IMG/VR virus record: IMGVR_UViG_3300046777_000118
Location: 1 to 29,909 of that record
Origin: a virus
Lineage: Duplodnaviria; Caudoviricetes
Strand: one strand, 5' to 3'
Length of the DNA stretch: 29,909 bases
The notes beneath the pieces are model-generated. The model did no database searches. It had not been told where the DNA came from and saw only the letters and a program-made list of their open reading frames with translations. Below are positions 1-12,013 of this stretch, piece after piece. Numbering within the stretch: the stretch's first letter is position 1; each line of letters opens with the position of its first letter. The translations under genes were made by a program, and so were the position numbers.

Positions 1-270
1 CACATCACGGTATGCGTGGCAGTGCTTGAGTTGTTTGTGCAGCAGCTCGTGTGCACGCACGTAGCGCATCTGCTTGCGATTCTGTGACACCACGAAGTCA
101 GGGTTATAGACCTCGTCACGACCGTTAGTCGCAGCGTAAGTTACACGATCAGAGATCTCGATGTCGCCAACCACAGCGACACAGCTGAGCTGTGCGAACC
201 GTGTATCTTTTGTGAAGTCGATGCCCACTGCCGTGATGCGCTCACGTGGGGTAAGTGTAGTAAATGACAT
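1..270 (-). CDS. Putative metallopeptidase, DUF2201/VWA-like family N-terminus (partial, runs off the window)
   Basis: Not in the ORF track. Manual translation from ATG at 270 gives MSFTTLTPRERITAVG...AATNGRDEVYNPDFV...VRAHELLHKQLKH, with AATxG...NP.F and HExxH motifs. AGGAG RBS upstream; lies downstream of a MoxR-like ATPase. Confidence 0.8.
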   Translation of the reverse strand, partial: MSFTTLTPRERITAVGIDFTKDTRFAQLSCVAVVGDIEISDRVTYAATNGRDEVYNPDFVVSQNRKQMRYVRAHELLHKQLKHCHAYRDV

Positions 271-293
271 AACATCTCTCCTTGTAGTTAAAG

Positions 294-1166
294 TTAAAAC
301 GACAGCTTGTCGATGAGTGCATCGACGTTCTTGCGCACGTCCTCACGGACGGACATGTTGTTGCGTAACTCTTTAGCGTCCACACCACTTAGTGCCTGTG
401 ACAGGCCCACACGCGCTTGCTCAAGCTCAACGTCCCCCACGATGTTGAGGTGCTTGACCATGTCACATAACTCAAGCGCACCCGTGACGAGTGAGTCGTG
501 GAACTTGCGCGTCTTACTCTCCCCGTCCACGTTGTCGTACCCCAGCCTGTCCTGCATGCGCGTGAGGTGCGTCTTGAGTCGCTGGCGTATGTCCTGCATC
601 GCTGCCTCGACGCGATCATCTGCGAGCTTGTTGAGCTTGTCCTGCAGTTCTTTCTGTGCGTCGTTGCCCACGTCCACACGGAAGTCACCCGCTGTGGGCA
701 CAGGCATGTAGTTGACCTTGAACGCAAACTTACTCTGCAACTCATCGGGCGTGGGGTAGTCCTCGCGTCTGAACATGTCACCAAGCGCCATCGCTTGTGC
801 TGTGATGAGTGACGGGTAGACCTTGATGAAGTCCTCGACGTAGCTGAAGAACGTGTCCTCGCTGTCGTGCATGCGCTTGCTGAACTCCATGAAGAACGTC
901 GTCGGTAATAAGCGCAAGCCATTGTCAGACCACGGCATGGTGTTCTCGTACACGAATGTGCGCACACTGCCAATGTAAGTCTGGATCACGTCCAGCTCGT
1001 TGCGACCTGCGAGCAGGTGCTTGTTGACTCGTGCTGCATCTTTAGCAGCAGCGTTCTTGCTGGACACAACCTCGTCGGTTGTTTTCTTGTCGAGCTTACG
1101 TGCTGTCCATACGGACGCGTTGAACTCAACGAGTAGTGAGCAGGTGTCTATGTTGAAACGTGTCAT
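294..1166 (-). CDS. Conserved phage protein, DUF3150-like
   Basis: 290-aa ORF with AGGAG RBS. N-terminal LVEFNASVWTARKLD and later TMPWSD.G.RLLP / PVP..GDFR motifs recalled from phage proteins found between AAA and VWA genes. Confidence 0.6.
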   Translation of the reverse strand: MTRFNIDTCSLLVEFNASVWTARKLDKKTTDEVVSSKNAAAKDAARVNKHLLAGRNELDVIQTYIGSVRTFVYENTMPWSDNGLRLLPTTFFMEFSKRMHDSEDTFFSYVEDFIKVYPSLITAQAMALGDMFRREDYPTPDELQSKFAFKVNYMPVPTAGDFRVDVGNDAQKELQDKLNKLADDRVEAAMQDIRQRLKTHLTRMQDRLGYDNVDGESKTRKFHDSLVTGALELCDMVKHLNIVGDVELEQARVGLSQALSGVDAKELRNNMSVREDVRKNVDALIDKLSF

Positions 1167-1187
1167 GGTAACTCTCCTAAAGTAATA

Positions 1188-1206
1188 GGGGACATGTGCG
1201 TCCCCG
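1188..1206. repeat. GGGGAC-N-GTCCCC palindromic hairpin, copy 1
   Basis: GGGGACATGTGCGTCCCCG in the intergenic gap between the AAA and DUF3150-like genes. Confidence 0.85.
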
Positions 1207-1223
1207 TTTGTTGCAACTACGGA

Positions 1224-2357
1224 TCAGACATTCACAAACTTGTTGTACTCACGCAGCATCAACTGGAACGGCTCGACGGTGTAGAAGTACGTCACCTTTG
1301 TCGAGTTAGCGATCTGGTTGATGAACAACTGCTTGTGCTCCTCGCGTGGCATGCGCGTCACGTATGTTGTAACTGCTGCCGCCTCGTCCCTGTCCTTAAC
1401 GCGTGACACAAACTGCTGCACCTGCACCATCTGTGCTATGGGGTCGTTGACCAACGGCGCACCCGTGGGGTTGTTACACACGAGCATGTAGTCAGGCAGC
1501 GTGTTACCGAGGCGTATGACTGTGAGGATCTTTTCAGCAGCCACACCCACCGCACCCCACAACAGCGCACGTAACGTCTGCGCATCCATCATGTCCATAC
1601 AGCGCACGATGTCCGAGGATGCCTCGAATGTGCGAGGCGACGCGTAGCTGTCTTGCGTCTCGCGTGGGTTGTAGATGTCAGGGTTGTCGAGCTTGAGCGT
1701 CTTGTCGTGGTGCTTGCCCCCCTCCTCATAGTCGAGGAATGAGTCAAACAGCGAGGGGTACTGACTTGTTGTAGCAATCACTCGGTAGTCGAGACCCTTG
1801 TTGATCGCGTACTCTTTCCACTCAGGCTGCGTGGGCTTGCGCATCTGCACGGTTATGCGTCTGCTGCGGATGTGTGCACGTGTGCTATCACCGAGACCCT
1901 CAGCGCCGAGGTTAGACGCAGCGATGACGAGCGACCCTTCGGGGAAGTGATAGTCCCCCACGCGGTAGTCATACATGATGGGCGCAAGTACGTTCTGTAT
2001 GTACTGCGGTGCTTTGTCCACCTCGTCGAGGAACACCACGACAGGACGCGAGCCGTTGACACCGAGCCGGTTAGTCCTGCTCAGCCCGAAGCGCTCGTTG
2101 GGTAACTCGCGTGATACACCTGCCTCGCGGTCGATGTCAGGCATCCACACCGAACCATCAGACATCTGCGTTGCGTCGATGGGATCGACGAAGATGTGGT
2201 TAGCGAACTGCGGGTCGTTGCGCAGCGCCATGACACAGGCCGTCTTGCCTATGCCGTTCTCACCCTGCACGTAGATGGTACGCCGCACACCGTTAGCGTT
2301 GAACGCCTTGATCGCCGACGTGACTTGGGCGTGTGAGAGCATGTTGTTCATGTCCAT
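1224..2357 (-). CDS. MoxR-like AAA+ ATPase
   Basis: Walker A GENGIGKT, Walker B VVVFLDE, sensor-I-like AASN, arginine-finger-like RSR; AAGGA RBS. Confidence 0.85.
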   Translation of the reverse strand: MDMNNMLSHAQVTSAIKAFNANGVRRTIYVQGENGIGKTACVMALRNDPQFANHIFVDPIDATQMSDGSVWMPDIDREAGVSRELPNERFGLSRTNRLGVNGSRPVVVFLDEVDKAPQYIQNVLAPIMYDYRVGDYHFPEGSLVIAASNLGAEGLGDSTRAHIRSRRITVQMRKPTQPEWKEYAINKGLDYRVIATTSQYPSLFDSFLDYEEGGKHHDKTLKLDNPDIYNPRETQDSYASPRTFEASSDIVRCMDMMDAQTLRALLWGAVGVAAEKILTVIRLGNTLPDYMLVCNNPTGAPLVNDPIAQMVQVQQFVSRVKDRDEAAAVTTYVTRMPREEHKQLFINQIANSTKVTYFYTVEPFQLMLREYNKFVNV

Positions 2358-2390
2358 AATAGTTTCCTTGAGTTGTTTGTGAGAAATATG

Positions 2391-2419
2391 ATTAGACCCC
2401 AGGTGGGGTAAGTTGTCAA
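2391..2419 (-). promoter_or_regulatory. Sigma70-type promoter for the AAA operon
   Basis: TTGACA (2419-2414), 17-nt spacer, TCTAAT (2396-2391). The spacer contains the inverted repeat ACCCC-N4-GGGGT. Confidence 0.7.
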
Positions 2420-2434
2420 GTATTAGACATTGTG

Positions 2435-2662
2435 TTAGTCAAGCATGTTAGTTCTCCTTAAGATGTTTGTGAGATGTGGGGATATGGGGACATCAGCGTC
2501 CCCGATTAGTTCTTCCATAACTTCTTGGTACACCTCCGTCCAGTATGTGTAGCCGATGCGTCCCTTGTCGTGCAGGTTGAGGTGGTATGTGCAGTGGATG
2601 GGCGCATAGTGTCCGTAGAGCTTGAGCATCTTCAGCGCGGTGTAGCGTGGGTCTGGTTTCAT
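2435..2662 (-). CDS. Hypothetical protein (75 aa)
   Basis: Likely start is ATG 2662 (MKPDPRY...), with a GAGGAG RBS and an ATGA overlap with the upstream gene's stop. Confidence 0.6.
   Translation of the reverse strand: MKPDPRYTALKMLKLYGHYAPIHCTYHLNLHDKGRIGYTYWTEVYQEVMEELIGDADVPISPHLTNILRRTNMLD
2486..2504. repeat. GGGGAC-N-GTCCCC hairpin, copy 2
   Basis: GGGGACATCAGCGTCCCCG, followed on the minus strand by TCTCACAAACATCTTAAGGAGAA. Confidence 0.8.
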
Positions 2663-3009
2663 ATAAGCTCCTCTGGTATGTCGATGTCGTCTCCAAGTTT
2701 TGATGCTACGTAGCACCGCATAGCTGCGATGAGTGGGGTTGGGCCATCTTCAAACGCAGTAGCGGTATGCTGCGCGTCGTATGCCATTGCGTTCCAACAT
2801 CCACGCAAAGACTTGGCGAGAAAGATTTCCTCCTGCTCAATAATCGGGCCACCTTGCGTCCAGTCGGTTGATGGGCGGTATCTTCCACCATTCAGGTCTG
2901 ATACGACATCCACCCCTTCGAGTGTTCCGTCCCAGTCTTCCGCACCATCAAATTCACACTTCGCCACTGCCCAATCAAGGGCAAGTCCTGTTAGTTCATT
3001 TGTTTTCAT
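2659..3009 (-). CDS. Phage NinX/DUF2591-like protein
   Basis: Motifs ELTG.ALDWAVAK, Y.PSTDW.QGGPIIE and GPTPLIAAMRCYVASKLG; AAGGAG RBS. Confidence 0.8.
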   Translation of the reverse strand: MKTNELTGLALDWAVAKCEFDGAEDWDGTLEGVDVVSDLNGGRYRPSTDWTQGGPIIEQEEIFLAKSLRGCWNAMAYDAQHTATAFEDGPTPLIAAMRCYVASKLGDDIDIPEELI

Positions 3010-3185
3010 GCTTGCTCTCCTTTAGTTGCATTTGCCAGTTCTTCACAGCACAGGCACTCACCGCACCGACAGATTCGCCCAACGGCTATGCGCTCTTGGC
3101 GCAGGTACTCCTCGCGTGACTCCGGCTCTTTCTTCTGCTCATACTTGAGCACGTTTAAGTTTCCCCACGTTTCGTATCCGTTCAT
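3006..3185 (-). CDS. Small Cys-rich hypothetical protein (59 aa)
   Basis: Below the ORF-track cutoff. MNGYETWG...ICRCGECLCCEELANATKGEQA; AGGAG RBS; ATGA overlap with the next gene. Confidence 0.7.
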   Translation of the reverse strand: MNGYETWGNLNVLKYEQKKEPESREEYLRQERIAVGRICRCGECLCCEELANATKGEQA

Positions 3186-3186
3186 C

Positions 3187-3267
3187 TCAATCTCCTAGTA
3201 TGAGTATGGTCAGCGCTACACCAAAAGCGAAAGCTATGGCGTAGCCAATGATGGCGTCCCAGTTCAT
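3187..3267 (-). CDS. 26-aa single-pass membrane peptide
   Basis: MNWDAIIGYAIAFAFGVALTILILGD with a strong AAGGAG RBS; fills the gap between hairpin copy 3 and the next gene. Confidence 0.6.
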   Translation of the reverse strand: MNWDAIIGYAIAFAFGVALTILILGD

Positions 3268-3297
3268 GTGATTCTCCTTGAGTTGTTTGTGAGATAT

Positions 3298-3316
3298 GGG
3301 GACATGTGTGTCCCCG
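3298..3316. repeat. GGGGAC-N-GTCCCC hairpin, copy 3
   Basis: GGGGACATGTGTGTCCCCG, intergenic. Confidence 0.85.
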
Positions 3317-3339
3317 TTGGGTTGGGCGTTGTTGTTGGG

Positions 3340-3861
3340 TTAGATAGTTGGGATTAGTTTCTTGGTGGGTCTGCCTCGCTTTCGTATTGTGAAAGGGTTG
3401 TTGATGGGGTTGGCTAGTTGTTGGCGTAGCTTAGTGGTGCGGTTTGTTTCTGCAATGAGCGCTTGCTGTTCTCTGCGTATGGACTGCTCAAGTAGTTGCA
3501 GCTTCACGTTCTCTGGTTTCAATGATGGGTACTTGAGCATGACGTGATGCAGGAGCATGGCTGCTTTCTTGTTACGTGATTCTTGTGCCTTGCGTCGTGC
3601 GATCTCAGCGTCGTAGTCAATTTGCTTGAGGTCGCCAGACGCTACGCGGTTGGCTAGTTCTTTACGTGATAGCTCACTGATGTGTCTGCGTTTGGGGCGG
3701 CAGTCTCGGCAGAGTTTGGATTCAATCCACGGTAAACGGTTGCCGGATAAACCACGCGAAATTGCCTGTGCGCGGGTTCCAAGATAACGAAAATGAGTGG
3801 TTGGGAAGGTGAGATTGCACTTGGTGCAGGTGCGTGTGTGGGTCGTTTTAGCGTGTGACAT
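3340..3861 (-). CDS. Basic zinc-finger / AT-hook DNA-binding protein (173 aa)
   Basis: Likely start ATG 3861 (MSHAK...) with AAGGA RBS. Two CxxC pairs (CTKC, CRDC) and a C-terminal RKRGRP AT-hook-like motif. Confidence 0.6.
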   Translation of the reverse strand: MSHAKTTHTRTCTKCNLTFPTTHFRYLGTRAQAISRGLSGNRLPWIESKLCRDCRPKRRHISELSRKELANRVASGDLKQIDYDAEIARRKAQESRNKKAAMLLHHVMLKYPSLKPENVKLQLLEQSIRREQQALIAETNRTTKLRQQLANPINNPFTIRKRGRPTKKLIPTI

Positions 3862-3879
3862 GTCTAATCCTTTACAAAA

Positions 3880-4245
3880 AGTGTCAAAAGTGTCCACATT
3901 GTCCAGATGGGTAGTGGACAGTGGTTTGCCCAATAACCACAGGGCTTGCAGCATAGTCGCCTCGAATTGCGGAAAATGAAGTGGACAGTCGGGAGCCCAA
4001 TAGCTGCGGGGAAATCGGCAAAAGTGTCCAGGTGTCCACCAAATTTTGGGAAAACACAAACTTGGGAAAGTAAAAAAGAAAAAGGGAAGCAAAGGCTCTT
4101 ATACATATTAATACATTACCCATTATTATTATATATATCTAATGACTTTTGATATAGATATAGGGGATGCCCCGTGGGACGGGGCTTTTCCGTGTACCAC
4201 GCCTATGTCCAAGCTGCACAAAAAACTGGGTCGCACTGGACATTT
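3880..4245. other. Candidate replication origin (short repeats plus AT-rich core)
   Basis: Non-coding. Eight TGTCCA/TGGACA hexamers flank an AT-rich tract at ~4098-4162. Confidence 0.45.
4169..4189 (+). terminator. GC-rich hairpin, possible intrinsic terminator
   Basis: GCCCCGT-GGG-ACGGGGC followed by TTTT. Confidence 0.4.
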
Positions 4246-4285
4246 CATAATGTGAAATAATCACTCCACAACGTGTTAAGGAGAA

Positions 4286-4474
4286 CTATAGCCAGCGTGA
4301 GGGCTTGTCGTTGTTGAAGCGCCATAGCAGAGCGATCATCTGGTCGTTGGTTGGAGCGTGTGTGCCGCGTTCGAGAGTGGGCTTGGTTGGGCGTGGAGCG
4401 TCTTGTTGGTGTTTGAGCGCAAGCATCTGCTCGTGGGTGAGTTTGGTGAATGTGTCGTGCCAGTATTTGTTCAT
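4286..4474 (-). CDS. Hypothetical protein (62 aa)
   Basis: Start ATG 4474 (MNKYWHD...) with AAGGAG RBS. Confidence 0.65.
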   Translation of the reverse strand: MNKYWHDTFTKLTHEQMLALKHQQDAPRPTKPTLERGTHAPTNDQMIALLWRFNNDKPSRWL

Positions 4475-4506
4475 GGTAGTTCTCCTTGATAAGTGAGGGA
4501 ATAAAA

Positions 4507-4523
4507 GGGGACATGTGTCCCCG
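4507..4523. repeat. GGGGAC-N-GTCCCC hairpin, copy 4 (U-tract on minus strand)
   Basis: GGGGACATGTGTCCCCG; the minus strand continues TTTTATT. Confidence 0.85.
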
Positions 4524-4530
4524 ATATGAA

Positions 4531-4938
4531 TCAAAGTGCTGCTTTGATGGCAGCGAGTTGCTTGGGGGTGAGCTTGGCTTTGTTGATGTAGTCGAGCACT
4601 TTCTTGACTGCGTCAACGCGCTTCTTGGGCTTGGGTTCTGCTTTGCCTTTGCTTGGCTCCATGATCTTAGCGATAAGCCGTTGGAGTTGTTTCTTGGCAG
4701 TCTCGTAGTTGGATGCGTCCTTGTCGAGCACGTATGTGCCTGCTGCCTTGCGCTGCCCTTCGAGTACATCAACACCGTAATGCTTGCCCACGGTGTGAAT
4801 GATGGATTGACGGATGACGACAGCATCATCGCCATAGAAATAGTCTTGAAGCTCTGCAAAGTTAGTTGCTAGCTTGTCCATGTTGATAAGGGCGGACTTG
4901 AGCATTGCAACGTATGCGGGTTGAAGGTTCTTAGCCAT
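4531..4938 (-). CDS. Hypothetical basic early protein (135 aa), first gene of the leftward operon
   Basis: Start ATG 4938 (MAKNLQP...) with GGAG RBS; Lys/Ala-rich C-terminus. Confidence 0.75.
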   Translation of the reverse strand: MAKNLQPAYVAMLKSALINMDKLATNFAELQDYFYGDDAVVIRQSIIHTVGKHYGVDVLEGQRKAAGTYVLDKDASNYETAKKQLQRLIAKIMEPSKGKAEPKPKKRVDAVKKVLDYINKAKLTPKQLAAIKAAL

Positions 4939-4959
4939 ATTTACTCTCCAAAAGAAAAA

Positions 4960-4976
4960 GGGGACATGTGTCCCCG
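4960..4976. repeat. GGGGAC-N-GTCCCC hairpin, copy 5 (U-tract on minus strand)
   Basis: GGGGACATGTGTCCCCG, identical to copy 4; the minus strand continues TTTTTCTTTT. Confidence 0.85.
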
Positions 4977-5116
4977 TTAGTGTGTGCTGTTTGATGATGT
5001 AGGCGGTTTTGGTGTTGCTTGGGTTAGTTTGTCGATTGATTTGACAGAGTTTGAAACCTGCCGCGACCCTCGCCGTCTGAATGCGTGATCGGCAACAGCA
5101 TCCCGACCACAACTAT

Positions 5117-5138
5117 ATTATACCACAACGTATTGTGG
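5117..5138 (-). promoter_or_regulatory. Extended -10 early promoter with overlapping palindrome
   Basis: TGTGGTATAAT (TGn-TATAAT, -10 at 5122-5117) overlapped by CCACAA-CGTA-TTGTGG (5123-5138). Confidence 0.65.
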
Positions 5139-5261
5139 AGAGCCTGACGGGGGTTATGCTTTTCGGCAGTTTTACAACCCCACTACTCCCGTATCCCCCC
5201 AACTGTGCGATGCAGGGACGATGCCGTATGGACACTATTTCACTCCCACACCACATATTTT

Positions 5262-5323
5262 TTACAAACTTTTACACCACCCACGCTAAGTACGCAAATT
5301 AATTACAAATCCTTACACCACCC
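5262..5323. repeat. Two 21-bp direct repeats TTACAAAnnnTTACACCACCC
   Basis: Copies at 5262-5282 and 5303-5323, 18/21 identical. Confidence 0.7.
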
Positions 5324-5404
5324 CCATACCAAAAACAAACACCTGCCCAAAAAAATTTTAAAAAATTGTACTTAAGTATTGTCAAATAATTGACATTGAT
5401 ACAT

Positions 5405-5430
5405 AAAAAATTCCCGGCGCGATGCCGGGA
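5405..5430 (-). terminator. Intrinsic terminator of the putative sRNA
   Basis: TCCCGGC-ATCGC-GCCGGGA followed by ATTTTTT on the minus strand. Confidence 0.75.
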
Positions 5431-5484
5431 TAAATCGTCGGGGGGAAGTGCCCAACTCAAGGAGAGTAGCATGGACATAGCTAC
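5405..5484 (-). ncRNA. Putative ~80-nt trans-acting antisense sRNA
   Basis: Promoter TTGACA-N17-TATTCT upstream and a terminator hairpin with U6 downstream. Body is complementary to the translation-initiation regions at 2350-2375 and 3265-3285. The 5' end is estimated from promoter geometry. Confidence 0.65.
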
Positions 5485-5490
5485 ACTTAT

Positions 5491-5519
5491 AGAATAGCTG
5501 CCTATTGCATACATGTCAA
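5491..5519 (-). promoter_or_regulatory. Sigma70-type promoter of the putative sRNA
   Basis: TTGACA (5519-5514), 17 nt, TATTCT (5496-5491). Confidence 0.7.
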
Positions 5520-5533
5520 TAAACCTTTAATCT
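5505..5533 (+). promoter_or_regulatory. Candidate rightward promoter for the terminase/morphogenesis operon
   Basis: TTGCAT (5505-5510), 17 nt, TAATCT (5528-5533); overlaps the divergent sRNA promoter. Confidence 0.45.
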
Positions 5534-5569
5534 ACGCCCACTTAAACAGAGGTGCCCCTTTTCCCTCGC

Positions 5570-6136
5570 ATGTTTGAACATCTTCTTACGCCTACTGTGT
5601 ATGACAGCCCACCAGCTATGACGATGGTGGATAAAGCCTCGCCTCAACAAGTCGTTGATGCGCAAGTAGCAACTGCAGACTTCTTAGAATCCATCGGCGC
5701 AGCATCCGAAGCGGAAGTAGACGCCAAGGCACAACAGAAGAACGCGCAGCTTGCGTTTGCAGCGATGACCGCAGGAGCGCCTACCGATCAGGTTAAGAAG
5801 AAATTGATGGCTAATACGACGCCAGAGGCTGTGCGGCACCTTGTAGGCATGCTGACGGCTTACGATTGGGCCTTTGTTGAGCAAGCGCGACAGATGCGTG
5901 GGTACGCCGTGGCTAAGATTCTGGAGGATACGGAGCACCCAGACCCCAGATACAGGCTAAAAGCGCTTGAGATGCTGGGTAAAGTGACCGAAGTGGCGCT
6001 ATTTACGGACCGCGTGGAGGTTAAAAAGACAGAAATGTCAGACGCGGAGATTGAAGAGAAGATTAAAGCCAAGCTTGGCAAGTATATGGGCGCTATTGAG
6101 GTAGAAGCCTCGGAAAAACCGCATGAATCTGAGTAA
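5570..6136 (+). CDS. Putative terminase small subunit
   Basis: Directly upstream of and overlapping terL; RLKALEMLGK...LF motif. Start is ATG 5570 or GTG 5552. Confidence 0.65.
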   Translation: MFEHLLTPTVYDSPPAMTMVDKASPQQVVDAQVATADFLESIGAASEAEVDAKAQQKNAQLAFAAMTAGAPTDQVKKKLMANTTPEAVRHLVGMLTAYDWAFVEQARQMRGYAVAKILEDTEHPDPRYRLKALEMLGKVTEVALFTDRVEVKKTEMSDAEIEEKIKAKLGKYMGAIEVEASEKPHESE

Positions 6137-7658
6137 TCATGAGGTGGAAGCGCTACGACATGCGCTGCCTAAAATGCCTGCGACAGAAAAAGCAGAAGTT
6201 TTGGCATTATTAGAAGAATTTGAACGTCGTAAAAGCATTAAAAGTGCGCAGACTTCATTATTATCTTTTGCCCACCATGTATATCCAGGGTTTAAAGAAG
6301 GCGCCCACCATAGAAAATTAGCAAAAATATTTGAAGATGTAGTTAATGGTAATAAAAAGCGGGTAATTATTAATATTGCCCCGCGTATGGGTAAATCAGA
6401 ATTCAGTTCTTATTTATTTCCAGCATATTTTCTTGGTCGATACCCTAATAAAAAAATTATTATGGGTACACATACGGCATCATTATCAGAAGATTTTGGG
6501 CGCAGAGTTAAAAACCTAGTTGATTCTGATGAATATCAAGAGATTTACCCTAAAACAGCGCTTGCAGACGACCAAAAAGCAGCCGGAAAATGGTCTACCG
6601 GTGCAGGAGGTCAGTATTATGCTGTTGGGGTTGGTGGTGCTCTGGCTGGTCGTGGCGCTGATTTATTTGTTATTGATGACCCACATTCTGAACAAGATAT
6701 AAAAGCTAATTCGAGATTAACTTTCGATCAGGCGTGGTCGTGGTTTCAAACTGGACCATTACAGCGATTAATGCCTGGGGGTGCGATTATAGTTATTATG
6801 ACCCGTTGGAGTTTAATTGATTTAACGGGTAAATTAATTGATTATCAAACTAAAAATCCTGAATCAGATAAATGGGAAATTGTTGAATTACCTGCGATAT
6901 TAAATGAGAATGAAGATAATGAAAAATCATTATGGCCTGAGCAGTGGCCTCTTGACCAATTAAAATCAAAACGTGCGGGGATGGACCCGCGCTACTGGCA
7001 AGCGCAATATATGCAGCAGCCGACAAGCGATGCAGCGGCTGTTATCCAGAGAAATATGTGGAAGGTCTGGGAGCACGAAGATCCGCCACGGTGTGAATTT
7101 ATTATTCAGTCTTGGGACACTGCGCACGAGACAAAGACACCCTCGGACTACACGGCCTGCACGACATGGGGTATCTGGTATAACGACGAGGACGGCGGTT
7201 CGCCCAATATTGTGCTGCTTGATGCGTTTAAGGCACGCCTTAACTTCCCTGACCTCAAAGCACGGGCGATGGAGATGTATAAGGAGTACGAGCCAGACAT
7301 CGTGCTGATTGAAAAGAAAGCAGCAGGCGCTCCTCTCCTGCAGGAGCTACACCGACTGGGTGTGCCGATCCAGGAGTTCAGTCCGTCCCGTGGTAACGAC
7401 AAGCACGTGCGCGTTAACGCTGTTGCCGATATATTTGCAAGTGGTAAGGTGTGGGCACCGGACACACGCTGGGCCAGAGAAGTGATTGAAGAGGTTGCTG
7501 CGTTCCCTGTGGGTGAGAATGACGACTACGTGGACACAATGACACAAGCCTTGCTACGCTTCAGGCAGGGTGGGTTTATTTCGCTGCCTAGCGATGAACC
7601 TGACGACGTGAGATATTTCCGTGGGTTCAGAGGGCAGAAACGTGGGTATTACTTATAG
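6123..7658 (+). CDS. terL: Terminase large subunit
   Basis: Walker A APRMGKS, Walker B LFVIDD, coupling motif MTRW; RNase H-like nuclease domain (QSWDTA ... DDYVD). Confidence 0.95.
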   Translation: MNLSNHEVEALRHALPKMPATEKAEVLALLEEFERRKSIKSAQTSLLSFAHHVYPGFKEGAHHRKLAKIFEDVVNGNKKRVIINIAPRMGKSEFSSYLFPAYFLGRYPNKKIIMGTHTASLSEDFGRRVKNLVDSDEYQEIYPKTALADDQKAAGKWSTGAGGQYYAVGVGGALAGRGADLFVIDDPHSEQDIKANSRLTFDQAWSWFQTGPLQRLMPGGAIIVIMTRWSLIDLTGKLIDYQTKNPESDKWEIVELPAILNENEDNEKSLWPEQWPLDQLKSKRAGMDPRYWQAQYMQQPTSDAAAVIQRNMWKVWEHEDPPRCEFIIQSWDTAHETKTPSDYTACTTWGIWYNDEDGGSPNIVLLDAFKARLNFPDLKARAMEMYKEYEPDIVLIEKKAAGAPLLQELHRLGVPIQEFSPSRGNDKHVRVNAVADIFASGKVWAPDTRWAREVIEEVAAFPVGENDDYVDTMTQALLRFRQGGFISLPSDEPDDVRYFRGFRGQKRGYYL

Positions 7659-7666
7659 GACAGATC

Positions 7667-10045
7667 ATGGCAATCAGTAAAGCACTTTATGAAATGCCTG
7701 AAGGCATCGAGATGTTGGCGCAGCAAGAAGCTCCCATCGAGATTGAAGTTGAGAACCCCGAAAGTATGAGTATTGGTGTGGGTGGGGTGGAGATTGAACT
7801 TGTGCCAGACGAGCCTTCGGCTGAGGACTTTGACGCTAATCTTGCAGATTTCATGTCTGAAGCTGACTTACAGAAGCTATCTTCTGATCTGATGGAGTTA
7901 GTTGAGGCTGATATTAATAGTCGCAAAGACTGGGTTGATACGTATGTCAAGGGTTTGGATGTTCTTGGCCTTCGGTACGATGAGGTGACTGAGCCTTGGG
8001 ATGGCGCTTGTGGGGTGTTCTCTACGTTGCTGACTGAGTCAGCGATTCGCTTCCAGAGCGAGTCTATTATGGAGACATTCCCCGCGCAAGGTCCGGTTAA
8101 GACCAACATCATTGGAGCTTGGAACCCACAAGTTGAAGAAGCTGCCAAACGGGTGCAGGCTGATATGAACTATCAGCTTACGGACAAGATGCCTGAGTAC
8201 CGCAGTGAGCATGAACGTGCTCTGTGGGGTGTTGCCCTTGCGGGGTCATCATTTAAGAAAGTCTACTACGATCCGTCGCTTGAGCGACAGGTGTCTTTCT
8301 ATGTTCCTGCTGAAGATGTCATCTTGCCCTATGGTGTGACAAACATTCGACGTACAGACCGCCTCACTCATGTGATGCGTAAGACTAAGAATGACATTAA
8401 GCGGTTGCAGGTCAGTGGGTTTTATAGGGACATCGACCTTGGTGAGCCTGACCCCAGTCAGACAGATATTGAGAAAGCCAAGGCGCAGAAAGAAGGTCAG
8501 CAGCCCACCCGCGATGAGCGGTATCAGATCTATGAGATCCACGCTGAGTATGACTTGCCGGGGTATGAGGAAGAGTTGCCGGTGCCCTACGTCATTACGA
8601 TTGATAAAGGCACTAATAAAGTACTCGCCATCCGCCGCAACTATCGGGAAGATGACTCACAGAAACGTGCGCGTCAGCACTTTGTGCACTATATGTATAT
8701 ACCTGGGTTTGGAGCATATGGCTTCGGGTTGATACATATTATTGGTGGTTATGCCACCGCAGGTACGATGCTGATCCGTCAGCTTGTGGATGCAGGCTCA
8801 CTGTCTAACCTCCCCGGCGGTCTTAAGTCCAGAGGGCTACGCATTAAAGGTGATGACACACCAATAGCTCCTGGTGAATGGCGAGATGTGGATGTGCCTG
8901 GAGGTGCTATACGAGACAACATCCTGCCGCTGCCGTACAAAGAACCAAGTCAGGTCTTATTAGCACTACTTAATCAAATTACTGAAGAAGCGCGACGGCT
9001 CAGTGGTATGGCTGATATGAAGATCAGCGACATGTCGAGTCAAGCTCCGGTGGGTACAACGCTGGCTCTCTTAGAGCGACAGCTCAAGACGATGGGTGCA
9101 GTACAGGCTCGCATCCATGCGGCGATGAAGGAAGAGTTCAAACTCCTCAAAGAGATCATCCGCGAGTACACCGCACCGGACTATAGCTACACACCACAAG
9201 ATGGCTCCCCACAGGTCAAGGCTGAGGACTACGACATCATTGAGGTCATACCCGTCTCTGATCCTAACGCCTCGACCATGGCTCAGCGGGTGGTGCAGTA
9301 CCAAGCGGCACTTCAGTTAGCTCAAGGGGCACCTCAGCTTTATGACCTCCCACGGCTGCATAGGCAGATGCTCGATGTGTTGGGTATTCCCAATGCTGAT
9401 AAGTTGGTACCACTACCTGACGATCAGACGCCTAAAGATCCTGTGACGGAGAACATGAACGCGCTAAAAGGCACACCCCTAAAAGCCTTTATTTATCAGG
9501 ACCACCAAGCGCATATCTCAACGCACATGGCGTTCATGCAAGATCCTAAGATTGCTGCAACGATTGGTCAGTCCCCGATGGCGCAGCAGATGCAAGCTGC
9601 GATTATGGCTCATGTCTCTGAGCACCTTGGGTATGCCTATCGTCAAGAGATTGAACAACGTGTCGGTGCGCCGCTACCTGGACCGGAGCAGAAAGTGTCC
9701 GAAGCTGAAGAGCTTGCGATGGCGAAATATGTGGCTGAAGCTGCACAACAAGTCCTACAGATTCATCAAGCACAAGCTGCACAGCAACAGTCTCAGGCAA
9801 TCGCAGCAGATCCGTTGGTGCAGTTACAGCAGCAGGACTTGCAGATTAAGGCGGCAGAACAGCAACGCAAAGCCGCTAAAGATCAGATCGACGCCCAGAT
9901 TGCAGCACAGAGACTGCAGGTCGAGCAGCAGCGCATCGCTGTTGATGCCCAGAAAGAAGGCATTAAGTTGCAGAACCAGAACCAGCAGAATGATCGTAAG
10001 TTGCAGTTTGATCTCCTCAAAGCACGTATGAAAGGTGGTCAATGA
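7667..10045 (+). CDS. Portal protein
   Basis: 792 aa, follows terL; G..FKKVYYD motif and long Gln-rich coiled-coil C-terminus as in P22-type portals. Confidence 0.85.
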   Translation: MAISKALYEMPEGIEMLAQQEAPIEIEVENPESMSIGVGGVEIELVPDEPSAEDFDANLADFMSEADLQKLSSDLMELVEADINSRKDWVDTYVKGLDVLGLRYDEVTEPWDGACGVFSTLLTESAIRFQSESIMETFPAQGPVKTNIIGAWNPQVEEAAKRVQADMNYQLTDKMPEYRSEHERALWGVALAGSSFKKVYYDPSLERQVSFYVPAEDVILPYGVTNIRRTDRLTHVMRKTKNDIKRLQVSGFYRDIDLGEPDPSQTDIEKAKAQKEGQQPTRDERYQIYEIHAEYDLPGYEEELPVPYVITIDKGTNKVLAIRRNYREDDSQKRARQHFVHYMYIPGFGAYGFGLIHIIGGYATAGTMLIRQLVDAGSLSNLPGGLKSRGLRIKGDDTPIAPGEWRDVDVPGGAIRDNILPLPYKEPSQVLLALLNQITEEARRLSGMADMKISDMSSQAPVGTTLALLERQLKTMGAVQARIHAAMKEEFKLLKEIIREYTAPDYSYTPQDGSPQVKAEDYDIIEVIPVSDPNASTMAQRVVQYQAALQLAQGAPQLYDLPRLHRQMLDVLGIPNADKLVPLPDDQTPKDPVTENMNALKGTPLKAFIYQDHQAHISTHMAFMQDPKIAATIGQSPMAQQMQAAIMAHVSEHLGYAYRQEIEQRVGAPLPGPEQKVSEAEELAMAKYVAEAAQQVLQIHQAQAAQQQSQAIAADPLVQLQQQDLQIKAAEQQRKAAKDQIDAQIAAQRLQVEQQRIAVDAQKEGIKLQNQNQQNDRKLQFDLLKARMKGGQ

Positions 10046-10245
10046 CCTACGAACGGCAGATGCTTGAGCATCTAAATAAAAGACTGTTAGAGCGTGAGGA
10101 GTCCGTTAAGGACTCTTTAGTGGGAAGCGGAGCGAAAGACTTCGCTGAATACAAAAATTTGTGCGGCGTTGTCCAGGGTCTGCGCCTAGCAAAGATGGAA
10201 ATCCAAGACCTTGTGCAACGTTATGAGGAATTTGAAGATGAATGA
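10042..10245 (+). CDS. Small conserved head-region protein (67 aa)
   Basis: ATGA overlap with the portal stop; helical; DFAEYKNLCG.VQGL motif. Confidence 0.7.
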   Translation: MTYERQMLEHLNKRLLEREESVKDSLVGSGAKDFAEYKNLCGVVQGLRLAKMEIQDLVQRYEEFEDE

Positions 10246-10618
10246 CACAGCGGAGGCTGTTATTGAAGCGGCACAACAAAAGGCAAAGCAATTGCCTGTA
10301 CCTAAAGGGTACAAGATCCTGTGCACTATACCTGACTACGAAGAAAAGTTTGATAGCGGGATCGTAAAAGCGGACATCACGATTAAGCATGAAGAGCTGC
10401 TTACTAATGTGCTGTTTGTCGTAAAGCTGGGAGATCTTGCCTACGCTGATCCGTCTCGTTTCCCTACAGGTCCGTGGTGCAGAGAGGGTGATTTTATTTT
10501 GGTACGCGCCAACACAGGTACTCGGATCATGATCCATGACCGAGAGTTTCGTTTGATTAACGATGATTCCGTCGAAGCGGTGGTTGAAGATCCCCGTGGT
10601 ATCCGACGTGCTGCGTGA
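10238..10618 (+). CDS. GroES/Cpn10-like co-chaperonin
   Basis: P.GYKIL, VVKLG..AY, GPWC.EGD.IL and FRLINDDSVEAVV motifs. Likely start ATG 10238 with GAGGA RBS. Confidence 0.8.
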   Translation: MNDTAEAVIEAAQQKAKQLPVPKGYKILCTIPDYEEKFDSGIVKADITIKHEELLTNVLFVVKLGDLAYADPSRFPTGPWCREGDFILVRANTGTRIMIHDREFRLINDDSVEAVVEDPRGIRRAA

Positions 10619-10626
10619 GGTGAACT

Positions 10627-11559
10627 ATGGCAATGGATAAAGAAGAATTTAAGTTTCCTGATGAAGCTGAAAAAGAGACTAAACAGGACGCTAAAGCGGA
10701 CAGTGAGTTTGAGATTGAAGTAGTTGACGATACGCCTGAGAGCGACAAAGACCGCAAACCGCTTGATGAGCCTATCAACGAGGTCACTGACGAAGATCTC
10801 TCTAAGTACGACGAGAGCGTACAGAAACGTATTAAGAAAATAACTCATGGCTATCATGACGAGCGTCGGGCTAAAGAAGCAGCACTGCGAGAACGTGAAG
10901 AAGCTTTGAGATTTGCTCAGCAACTTGTCGATGAGAACAATCGACTTAAGAAAGACCTCGGCAGTAATACCGACGTGCTCGTTAAAACGGCTAAAAATAC
11001 GGCTGAATTAGAGCTTGAGCAAGCGCGTAAACGGTACAAAGAAGCGTATGAGTCTTTCGACCCAGATAAGGTTGTTGAAGCGCAAGAAGCGCTGACTGCG
11101 GCTAAGTTAAAGCTTGAACGATTAAACAGCTTTAAACCAGCCCCTTTACAGGAAAGGCAAATTCCTGTAAATATGCAACCACAGATCGCTCCAGAGCCTG
11201 TTCCTGATCCCAAAGCACTTGCGTGGCGTGACCAAAATCGGTGGTTTGGGCAGGACGAAGAGATGACCAGCTTTGCTCTGGGGCTGCATGAGAAATTGGT
11301 CAAAAACGGTGTTGACCCGACTTCAGATGAGTATTATGAACGCGTCAACTCTCGTATACGTGAGAAGTTCCCTGAGAACTTTGAGAGCGTAAAAGAGGAA
11401 AAACCTCGACGTAGTAACGTAGTAGCTCCAGCGTCTCGTAGCGTTGCGCCCAAGAAAATCACGCTTACTCAAACGCAGGTAGCTTTAGCGAAGAAGTTAA
11501 AAATTCCTCTTGAACTGTACGCTCGCAAAGTAGCGGAAGGGATGACACAAAATGGCTGA
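10627..11559 (+). CDS. Putative scaffolding protein
   Basis: Acidic N-terminus and coiled coil; lies between portal and capsid genes. Confidence 0.6.
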   Translation: MAMDKEEFKFPDEAEKETKQDAKADSEFEIEVVDDTPESDKDRKPLDEPINEVTDEDLSKYDESVQKRIKKITHGYHDERRAKEAALREREEALRFAQQLVDENNRLKKDLGSNTDVLVKTAKNTAELELEQARKRYKEAYESFDPDKVVEAQEALTAAKLKLERLNSFKPAPLQERQIPVNMQPQIAPEPVPDPKALAWRDQNRWFGQDEEMTSFALGLHEKLVKNGVDPTSDEYYERVNSRIREKFPENFESVKEEKPRRSNVVAPASRSVAPKKITLTQTQVALAKKLKIPLELYARKVAEGMTQNG

Positions 11560-12013
11560 AAATCGTACAAACCGTGATGCAGTAACCCGTGACAAAGTTG
11601 AGCGTCCTCGCACTTGGGCACCCCCCACGTTGCTGCCTGACCCTACACCTGAGCCTGGGTATAAGTATCGTTGGGTTCGAGTCTCCATGATGGGCCAATC
11701 TGACCCACGTAATGTGTCAACAAAACTCCGTGAAGGCTGGGAACCTGTAAGAGCTGAAGATCATCCTGAGATTTCTGGTTATCTGGATAACGATAATCAG
11801 CGGTTTAAGGACAACATTGTTGTTGGCGGTTTGATGCTTTGCAAAACCCCGGTAGAACTCGTTGAGCAACGTAATGCGTATTATCAAGCGCAAGCAGATG
11901 CTCAGATGCGCTCTGTCGATAATTCATTCATGCGCGAGAACGATCCGAGGATGCCTCTGTTTTCAGAGCGCAAGACTTCGGTGACATTCGGACGTGGCAA
12001 TCCACAATCTTAG
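11552..12013 (+). CDS. Conserved head-module hypothetical protein
   Basis: 153 aa, YRWVR...LREGWEPV...GGLMLCK; overlaps the upstream gene. Confidence 0.65.
   Translation: MAENRTNRDAVTRDKVERPRTWAPPTLLPDPTPEPGYKYRWVRVSMMGQSDPRNVSTKLREGWEPVRAEDHPEISGYLDNDNQRFKDNIVVGGLMLCKTPVELVEQRNAYYQAQADAQMRSVDNSFMRENDPRMPLFSERKTSVTFGRGNPQS

Follow-up and report, generated by a model that had tools for sequence, protein, structure and literature searches.

What does a complete promoter-to-terminator unit on the minus strand, lying between the leftward early genes and the rightward terminase genes of a tailed phage, produce, and on which messages would its product act? The original prediction took it for a gene encoding a trans-acting antisense RNA directed at the ribosome-binding sites (RBSs) of the phage's own early genes. 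This general claim is supported by the analyses described here, as the unit is conserved, its strand bias points to the minus strand, and its seed and the early leaders change together.

The stretch of DNA under study (29,909 nucleotides, hereafter the window) is a 29.9-kb piece of a tailed-phage genome (G000). To the left of approximately position 4940 all genes run leftward, namely a truncated DUF2201 metallopeptidase/VWA gene, a DUF3150 gene, an AAA ATPase gene, a NinX-like gene and several small ORFs, and from 5570 the genes run rightward and comprise a putative small terminase gene (terS), terL, portal, GroES, capsid and tail genes. The near-complete relatives, 60–67 kb in length, carry on their early strand the genes for a DNA polymerase, a primase-helicase, an SNF2-type helicase and an exonuclease. 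Among the 38 proteins scanned from one complete relative, there was no match to an integrase, repressor, antirepressor or RNA polymerase, and the family thus looks lytic and reliant on the host polymerase. The terS of the window had no match in 50,697 phage records (cultured relatives), and the closest capsids were those of MinM2, Pag-Yong1 and Pra-JY27 (73%) and HTVC023P (65%). In a pattern scan of about 6 kb on each side of terL, no promoter-seed-terminator unit was found in MinM2, DSL-LC04 or HTVC027P. A scan of GTDB returned five MAG contigs from unrelated taxa, none of which pointed to a usable host.

Several further observations concern the genomes themselves. The GroES-like co-chaperonin gene (window 10238–10618, plus strand) adjoins the portal gene and is kept in relatives. 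In two genomes (G022:C1:33891-36287 and G029:C1:15179-17590), the terL match is split in two within a single open frame of 818 aa, a pattern suggestive of an inserted in-frame element, for instance an intein. One Chitinophagales MAG contig (G025:C24, locus L268) holds the late-gene block of the family and the RNA amid unrelated genes, where terL is split in two and an early region is missing, and may be a remnant, a chimera or a mis-bin. In addition, many contigs stop just upstream of terS, which then lies approximately 40–400 nt from the contig end, near the low-complexity stretch at 5150–5400 of the window; such ends may represent a genome end, a pac site or an assembly break.

Anatomy of the unit

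The unit and its immediate neighbours consist of the following features:

5491–5519, minus strand: sigma70-type promoter of the RNA (−35 TTGACA at 5519–5514, spacer of 17, −10 TATTCT at 5496–5491)
5405–5484, minus strand: predicted small RNA of ~80 nt (5′ end placed at about 5486–5484)
5466–5484, minus strand: 5′ hairpin GUAGC/GCUAC of the predicted fold, whose loop presents the anti-AUG (5 pairs, conserved as identical bases, with no compensatory change)
5457–5465, minus strand: open anti-Shine-Dalgarno (anti-SD) seed core UCUCCUUGA (unpaired probability 0.7–0.9)
5453–5478, minus strand: segment predicted to pair with the AAA leader through 22 Watson-Crick pairs plus a single G-U
5437–5456, minus strand: middle hairpin, whose sequence varies among relatives
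5405–5430, minus strand: intrinsic terminator (7-bp stem at 5430–5412 and U6)
5380–5395, no strand: palindrome TGTC-N8-GACA, directly beyond the terminator and outside the RNA
5505–5533, plus strand: candidate rightward terS promoter, presumed active (TTGCAT at 5505–5510, spacer of 17, TAATCT at 5528–5533), overlapping the RNA promoter
5570–6136, plus strand: putative terS, without PHROG or Pfam matches and so named because it sits before terL

The TTGACA-N17-TATTCT promoter and the U6 terminator of the original prediction were both recovered by site listing. Among the 11 promoter-like sites in positions 1–8000, the RNA promoter was the best, with 10 of the 12 consensus positions; its TTGAC and TATnnT columns are unchanged across 15 close relatives, and its −35 box begins with TTG in 36 of 51 non-redundant copies. 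The proposed overlap with a rightward terminase promoter is also present, although TTGCAT-17-TAATCT is too far off consensus to enter the list of promoter sites; its TTG complement is invariant among close relatives. Folding of positions 5400–5490 gave z = −3.3, and the predicted fold agrees with the earlier description of a GUAGC/GCUAC hairpin that displays the anti-AUG in a loop and leaves the anti-SD single-stranded. The middle hairpin (5456–5437) was missing from that description, and the 3′ end of the AAA-matching stretch (5456–5453) falls inside it.

No reading frame over the unit is conserved on either strand. A minus-strand ORF of 71 aa (5514–5299) starts within the −35 box, and its ATG is missing in most relatives. 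The palindrome at 5380–5395 may be an operator on the next early promoter. Palindromes of the type TGTC-N8-(G/T)ACA occur at 2414–2429, 3861–3876 and 5380–5395 of the window, near early promoters or gene starts, and often supply the TTGACA −35 box; with two to four copies per genome in the eight genomes checked, they are possibly operators for a phage regulator.

RNA sequencing data were also inspected. Seven RNA-evidence runs contained at most 0.14 of the words. Mapping of four RNA runs to positions 1–12000 gave no contig over 5201–5557, the contigs being unstranded and an 80-nt RNA possibly being lost in the library or the assembly. By arithmetic, the depth in the 5201–5557 bin is fully due to contigs starting at 5558 (runs X2 and X4, a common start without a DNA-run control) and 5565 (X3). 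Mapping on L046:7000-9000, again with unstranded assembled contigs, likewise gave no contig over the RNA unit. These contigs are no evidence for or against the predicted RNA.

Conservation and strand of the unit

Three terS searches yielded 227 distinct viral loci, 200 of which were analysed; the other 27 were left out for a short upstream flank, a partial match, one duplicate and one oversight. As scored by script, the terminator was found in 191 of the 200 loci, the terminator together with the anti-SD seed in 181, and both together with the −10 box in 177. Among the 19 seedless loci, five have a seed by eye, three are ambiguous, and the remaining 11 form one clade without seed and terminator. 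The unit was also visible by eye in each of the 16 distant AAA loci in which terS is present as well (terL 50–75% identical). Across 51 copies of less than 80% identity, the seed core had a mean unpaired probability of 0.80 versus 0.41 for the whole RNA, exceeding 0.7 in 39 of the 51, and the portion of the RNA that varies least is the CUCC(U) core. The minus strand folded better than its complement in 43 of these copies, with 162 G-U pairs versus 29 on the opposite strand. RNAalifold retained only three terminator pairs and detected no column-level covariation in 24 diverse copies, because the stems are not alignable by sequence, and in eight close copies the pairs were preserved by identity, again with no covariation. 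In one lineage (G014, G015 and G017, together with L122, upstream of terS), the predicted RNA begins at the seed and the 5′ hairpin is absent. The unit is a real, family-wide candidate sRNA, whose predicted pairing with the early leaders of its own phage is well backed by comparison among lineages.

The same segment might be read in the opposite direction, as a rightward RBS followed by an ORF, short or decayed (MDIATLIE*), or as an alternative start of terS. A start codon does follow the plus-strand GGAG by 4–12 nt in 40 of 52 loci, five of them in the terS frame; however, there is no such codon in the other 12, frames and peptides are unrelated between lineages, and the promoter, the U tail and the G-U bias all indicate the minus strand. 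A decayed rightward gene start, which the original prediction had itself raised against the RNA, is hence inconsistent with the starts, frames and peptides of the different lineages; this reading is largely refuted, and we consider it barely credible.

Predicted targets and co-variation with early leaders

Within positions 1–6200 of the window, the longest inverted repeat is formed by 5478–5453 and 2375–2350, the latter covering the leader and gene start of the AAA ATPase gene. Our recount of this match was identical to the one first reported (22 Watson-Crick pairs and one G-U over 26 positions), as was that of the match to the 26-aa peptide leader, and a string comparison placed three of the four AAA mismatches in GCUAC, at 5466, 5469 and 5470, as had been described. 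Outside the SD core and the ATG, 15 of 18 positions match. Only one of 2023 called leaders from 28 genomes reached 22/26, namely the AAA leader of the window itself, and the match between the RNA and this leader exceeds chance. When the leaders of the window were ranked by predicted binding, with accessibility counted, the leader at 2357 came first, as anticipated. The predicted targets are as follows:

2350–2375, minus strand: leader and gene start of the AAA ATPase gene (2357–1224; phrog_1297 / AAA), rank 1 of 40 window leaders, −17.7 kcal/mol
3265–3285, minus strand: leader of the 26-aa peptide ORF (3267–3187), 18/21, −14.2 kcal/mol
3007–3028, minus strand: leader of the NinX-like gene (3009; PF10765), −13.8 kcal/mol
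4936–4955, minus strand: leader of orf 4938, −11.6 kcal/mol
4472–4490, minus strand: leader of orf 4474, −11.4 kcal/mol
268–286, minus strand: leader of the truncated DUF2201 metallopeptidase/VWA gene (270), −11.4 kcal/mol
1164–1185, minus strand: leader of the DUF3150 gene, a weaker target, −9.0 kcal/mol (the family co-varies, p = 0.0016)

The weaker matches at 4474 and 1166 that had been pointed out were thus predicted to bind, and the leaders of the NinX-like gene, orf 4938 and the DUF2201 gene, absent from the earlier list, bind equally well or better. The truncated gene at 270 owes its name to a relative, in which the gene at the equivalent position is DUF2201. In the genome of the window, no predicted target surpasses the AAA leader, yet it is only one among many.

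Two features of the early region are also recorded here. The 26-aa peptide ORF (3267–3187, minus strand) is hydrophobic, and its leader is strong and a repeat of that of the AAA gene. Hairpins of the type GGGGACA..GTCCCC recur just upstream of early leaders (1188–1205, 2485–2504, approximately 3298–3315, 4507–4522 and 4960–4975) and may be read as terminator-, processing- or stability-type elements.

Co-variation between the RNA and the leaders was evident at the depth of the family. In 10 deep lineages, the predicted binding of the RNA to its own AAA leader was −21.9 kcal/mol versus −15.4 kcal/mol for foreign ones (permutation p = 4 × 10−5; one RNA, that of L107, was mis-cut, a fault that works against the positive result), and two alternative sets of representatives gave p = 2 × 10−5 and 6 × 10−5. 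For example, the seed UCCUUCGUUGU of L128 pairs with the leader ACAACGAAGGA; L107 has the seed UUUUCCUUUA and the leader UAAAGGAAAA, with GGAG missing from both; and in L133 there is a perfect seed-leader match of 10 nt upstream of the start. The best five early leaders fitted their own RNA better than foreign RNAs in 14 of 14 lineages (25 genomes, p = 2 × 10−5). Late leaders, from which terS had been removed, fitted their own RNA no better than foreign ones (13 lineages, 21 genomes, p = 0.42), which argues against a host-wide RBS style.

Co-variation with the RNA at p < 0.05 was found for 7 of 16 early gene families and for 3 of 29 late ones, one of which is an artefact; in these counts, genomes of the same lineage are not independent, the lineages were drawn by hand from terL identity, and the starts come from a simple custom gene caller that prefers SD-like starts and in some cases called them wrongly. 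The artefact is the apparent co-variation of terS, which was rejected because in G024 and G029 the called starts fell within the RNA locus. The early families are AAA, DUF7307, DUF3150, DUF2201, a 322-aa family, the SNF2-type helicase and a 96-aa family; the co-variation of AAA is the strongest (centred −4.85, p = 0.0002), and DUF7307 also reaches p = 0.0002.

Nevertheless, the co-variation of seed and AAA leader that had been expected in relatives holds across the deep lineages and not within the clade of the window itself, where 14 loci gave p = 0.19 and 0.29. In addition, L082 and L086 combine a window-type AAA leader with a different seed, and their predicted pairing drops to −15.4 and −15.9 versus −30.8 kcal/mol. 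Together, these observations indicate that the 22/26 match belongs to this genome and a few kin, and not to the system. Six genomes from two lineages (G003, G004 and G006–G009, one of them 98% and another 100% complete) keep the RNA and have no member of the AAA family, and the AAA leader ranks only 23–32 in G001, G011 and G012 (in this per-genome ranking several RNAs were cut short, those of G015 and G016 badly, and they were recut for the later tests). In G003, G006 and G009, the best target is the leader of the SNF2-type helicase, with a G-U pair facing the U of AUG.

These results bear directly on the narrow form of the original prediction, in which the RNA is a switch dedicated to the AAA/DUF3150/DUF2201 module and induced together with the late genes. 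The first rank of the AAA leader in the window, its leading co-variation, the significance of DUF3150 and DUF2201, and the overlap of the RNA and terS promoters all speak for such a switch. However, the AAA gene is not supported as the defining target in view of the null result in the close clade, the six genomes with the RNA and no AAA gene, and the co-variation of leaders from the replication module (DUF7307 and the SNF2-type helicase), and we regard a dedicated switch as highly unlikely. From sequence comparison, the RNA is probably a trans-acting sRNA of the anti-RBS type whose targets include many early genes and replication genes.

Early and late leaders, promoter arrangement and related systems

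The extended SD motif AAGGAGA was present in 166 of 837 early leaders versus 15 of 797 late leaders (summed over 25 genomes; G025, having no phage early region, was left out), and early leaders were predicted to bind their own RNA better than late leaders in 21 of 21 genomes. The clade without the RNA (L240, L255, L259, L291–L297 and L301, including G031 and G033) allows this bias to be viewed in its absence. In all 11 of its loci the leftward −10 box reads TACACC, having lost the final T of the TACACT found in the sister loci, which retain the RNA; the rightward −10 box was retained. The joint loss of this T, the seed and the terminator ties the promoter to the RNA, and it counts as a single evolutionary event. 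In G031 and G033 the early leader motif persists (6/34 early versus 0/41 late and 2/26 versus 0/32, respectively), and RNAs taken from other genomes are still predicted to bind their early leaders better than their late ones. Thus, the early/late bias does not require the RNA and is by itself no proof of it. The RNA is dispensable in this clade, and a pattern search of G031 and G033 found no second anti-SD unit in either.

The relation to the terS promoter differs among lineages. In most of them, the −10 boxes of the two promoters share a palindrome (GTGTACAC or GTATATAC), and the 5′ hairpin has a GCAA loop that would serve, on the opposite strand, as the −35 box of terS. With starts roughly 20–25 bp apart by estimate, this arrangement resembles the bidirectional sigma70 promoters for which the accessible part of one report gives examples with starts 10–23 bp apart (PMC12825309). 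In contrast, the two predicted promoters in the clade of the window overlap at the −35 box, with starts approximately 55 bp apart by estimate. Shared or overlapping promoters may permit a coupling to late transcription, although the RNA promoter resembles an ordinary sigma70 promoter and might be active from the onset of infection.

This arrangement also admits an explanation in which the unit is an insulator: the terminator would stop the leftward by-product of a bidirectional terS promoter, and the seed would be an inverted early-leader repeat, kept by recombination or for a role in DNA or protein binding, without functional pairing. Besides the shared promoter elements, it can draw on the repeated nature of the early leaders, on the persistence of the leader motif in genomes without the RNA, and on the lack of a wobble asymmetry: wobble-compatible changes were not enriched in own pairs (207:173 versus 4898:4513, p = 0.37), so that selection for pairing is not separable from DNA-level copying of the leader repeat. 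However, several observations speak against an insulator: the seed is retained and unpaired even among copies with largely dissimilar stems, the leftward −10 box was lost along with the unit while the rightward one stayed, the RNA of one lineage begins at the seed, and the seed's complement is rare in late leaders. We therefore hold it to be unlikely.

Among known phage RNAs, c4 is processed from a longer precursor, whereas the unit described here carries its own terminator. As far as the accessible part of a review describes it, the c4 antisense RNA of P1/P7 is phage-encoded, approximately 77 nt long and trans-acting, pairs around the RBS of a phage mRNA to block its translation, and governs antirepressor synthesis in temperate phages, and the phage sRNAs covered there have as targets either individual phage genes or genes of the host (PMC12197685). 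The predicted RNA is likewise phage-encoded, short, predicted to act in trans and aimed at RBSs, but it would target many early and replication leaders, and its locus lies back to back with terS. The c4 model was not among the eight Rfam matches at E ≤ 10, the unit is flanked by terS and early genes, and neither an antirepressor nor a repressor was matched among the proteins scanned, which were a subset of the ORFs of these genomes.

A structural likeness is seen to the toxic double-hairpin sRNAs of Betaproteobacteria (RF02278; ncS03/05/27/62) and to anti-hemB (RF02837), which the available part of their description presents as chromosomal RNAs with host metabolic targets (PMC5688073). Like these, the predicted RNA is short and has hairpins, an intrinsic terminator, many predicted targets and, between the hairpins, a CU-rich unpaired anti-RBS stretch, whereas a lineage-wise match to phage leaders does not figure in that part of their description. 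The phage RNA might accordingly be a general anti-SD inhibitor of host mRNAs, serving shut-off or metabolic reprogramming, with the match to phage leaders being secondary. The constancy of the CUCC(U) core would fit such a role, as would a weak likeness to Burkholderia anti-hemB and RF02278, and the toxic sRNAs, as partly described (PMC5688073), cover the RBSs of host genes and slow growth. However, the flanks of the core track the phage-specific leaders lineage by lineage, Rfam gave no match at the gathering threshold for the window and 10 related loci, and the two covariance scores are far under gathering (24.4 versus 49.5 bits for anti-hemB, 16.1 versus 50 bits for RF02278). We thus consider a host-directed role distinctly improbable.

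A parallel in predicted logic is the RegB endoribonuclease of T4, through which, according to the part of the report available, early phage mRNAs are switched off as a class via the GGAG of the Shine-Dalgarno sequence (PMC1702504); RegB is a protein nuclease, whereas the RNA here would act by pairing. The predicted RNA belongs to none of the c4, RF02278, RF02837 and RegB groups. No description of such an RNA was found in the literature searched, a search outside of which most subscription journals lie.

Taken together, the reading that we prefer, with a probability of roughly two in three, is that the conserved minus-strand unit makes a non-coding RNA of ~80 nt that would pair with the early and replication RBSs of its own phage and lower their translation as a group, largely sparing the late genes. 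The host sigma70 polymerase would transcribe the unit, and a stable RNA would accumulate. Its open core would nucleate on AAGGAGA, the extended SD that early and replication mRNAs share, and with the opening of the 5′ hairpin the pairing would extend across the start codon; binding of the 30S subunit would then be blocked, and late leaders, mostly without this tag, would escape. As the promoter is near the sigma70 consensus, accumulation from early times is favoured, and the RNA would most likely be a built-in timer that damps early proteins while infection proceeds.

On a broader and more tentative view, this apparently lytic family may run its early-to-late switch by translation, with an extended-SD tag on early and replication genes that late genes shun, and an anti-tag RNA beside the terminase promoter that silences the tagged class. 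If this is true, the RNA would match T4 RegB in role while evolving in concert with an entire regulon, and a natural knock-out clade is available for it. The RNA and the leaders are short enough for plasmids, and the natural seed/leader pairs and the RNA-less sister clade provide controls, so that the phage itself is not required. An RNA able to mark, through their RBSs, all mRNAs of one temporal class of its own phage would bring a further level of control to the timing of phage development.
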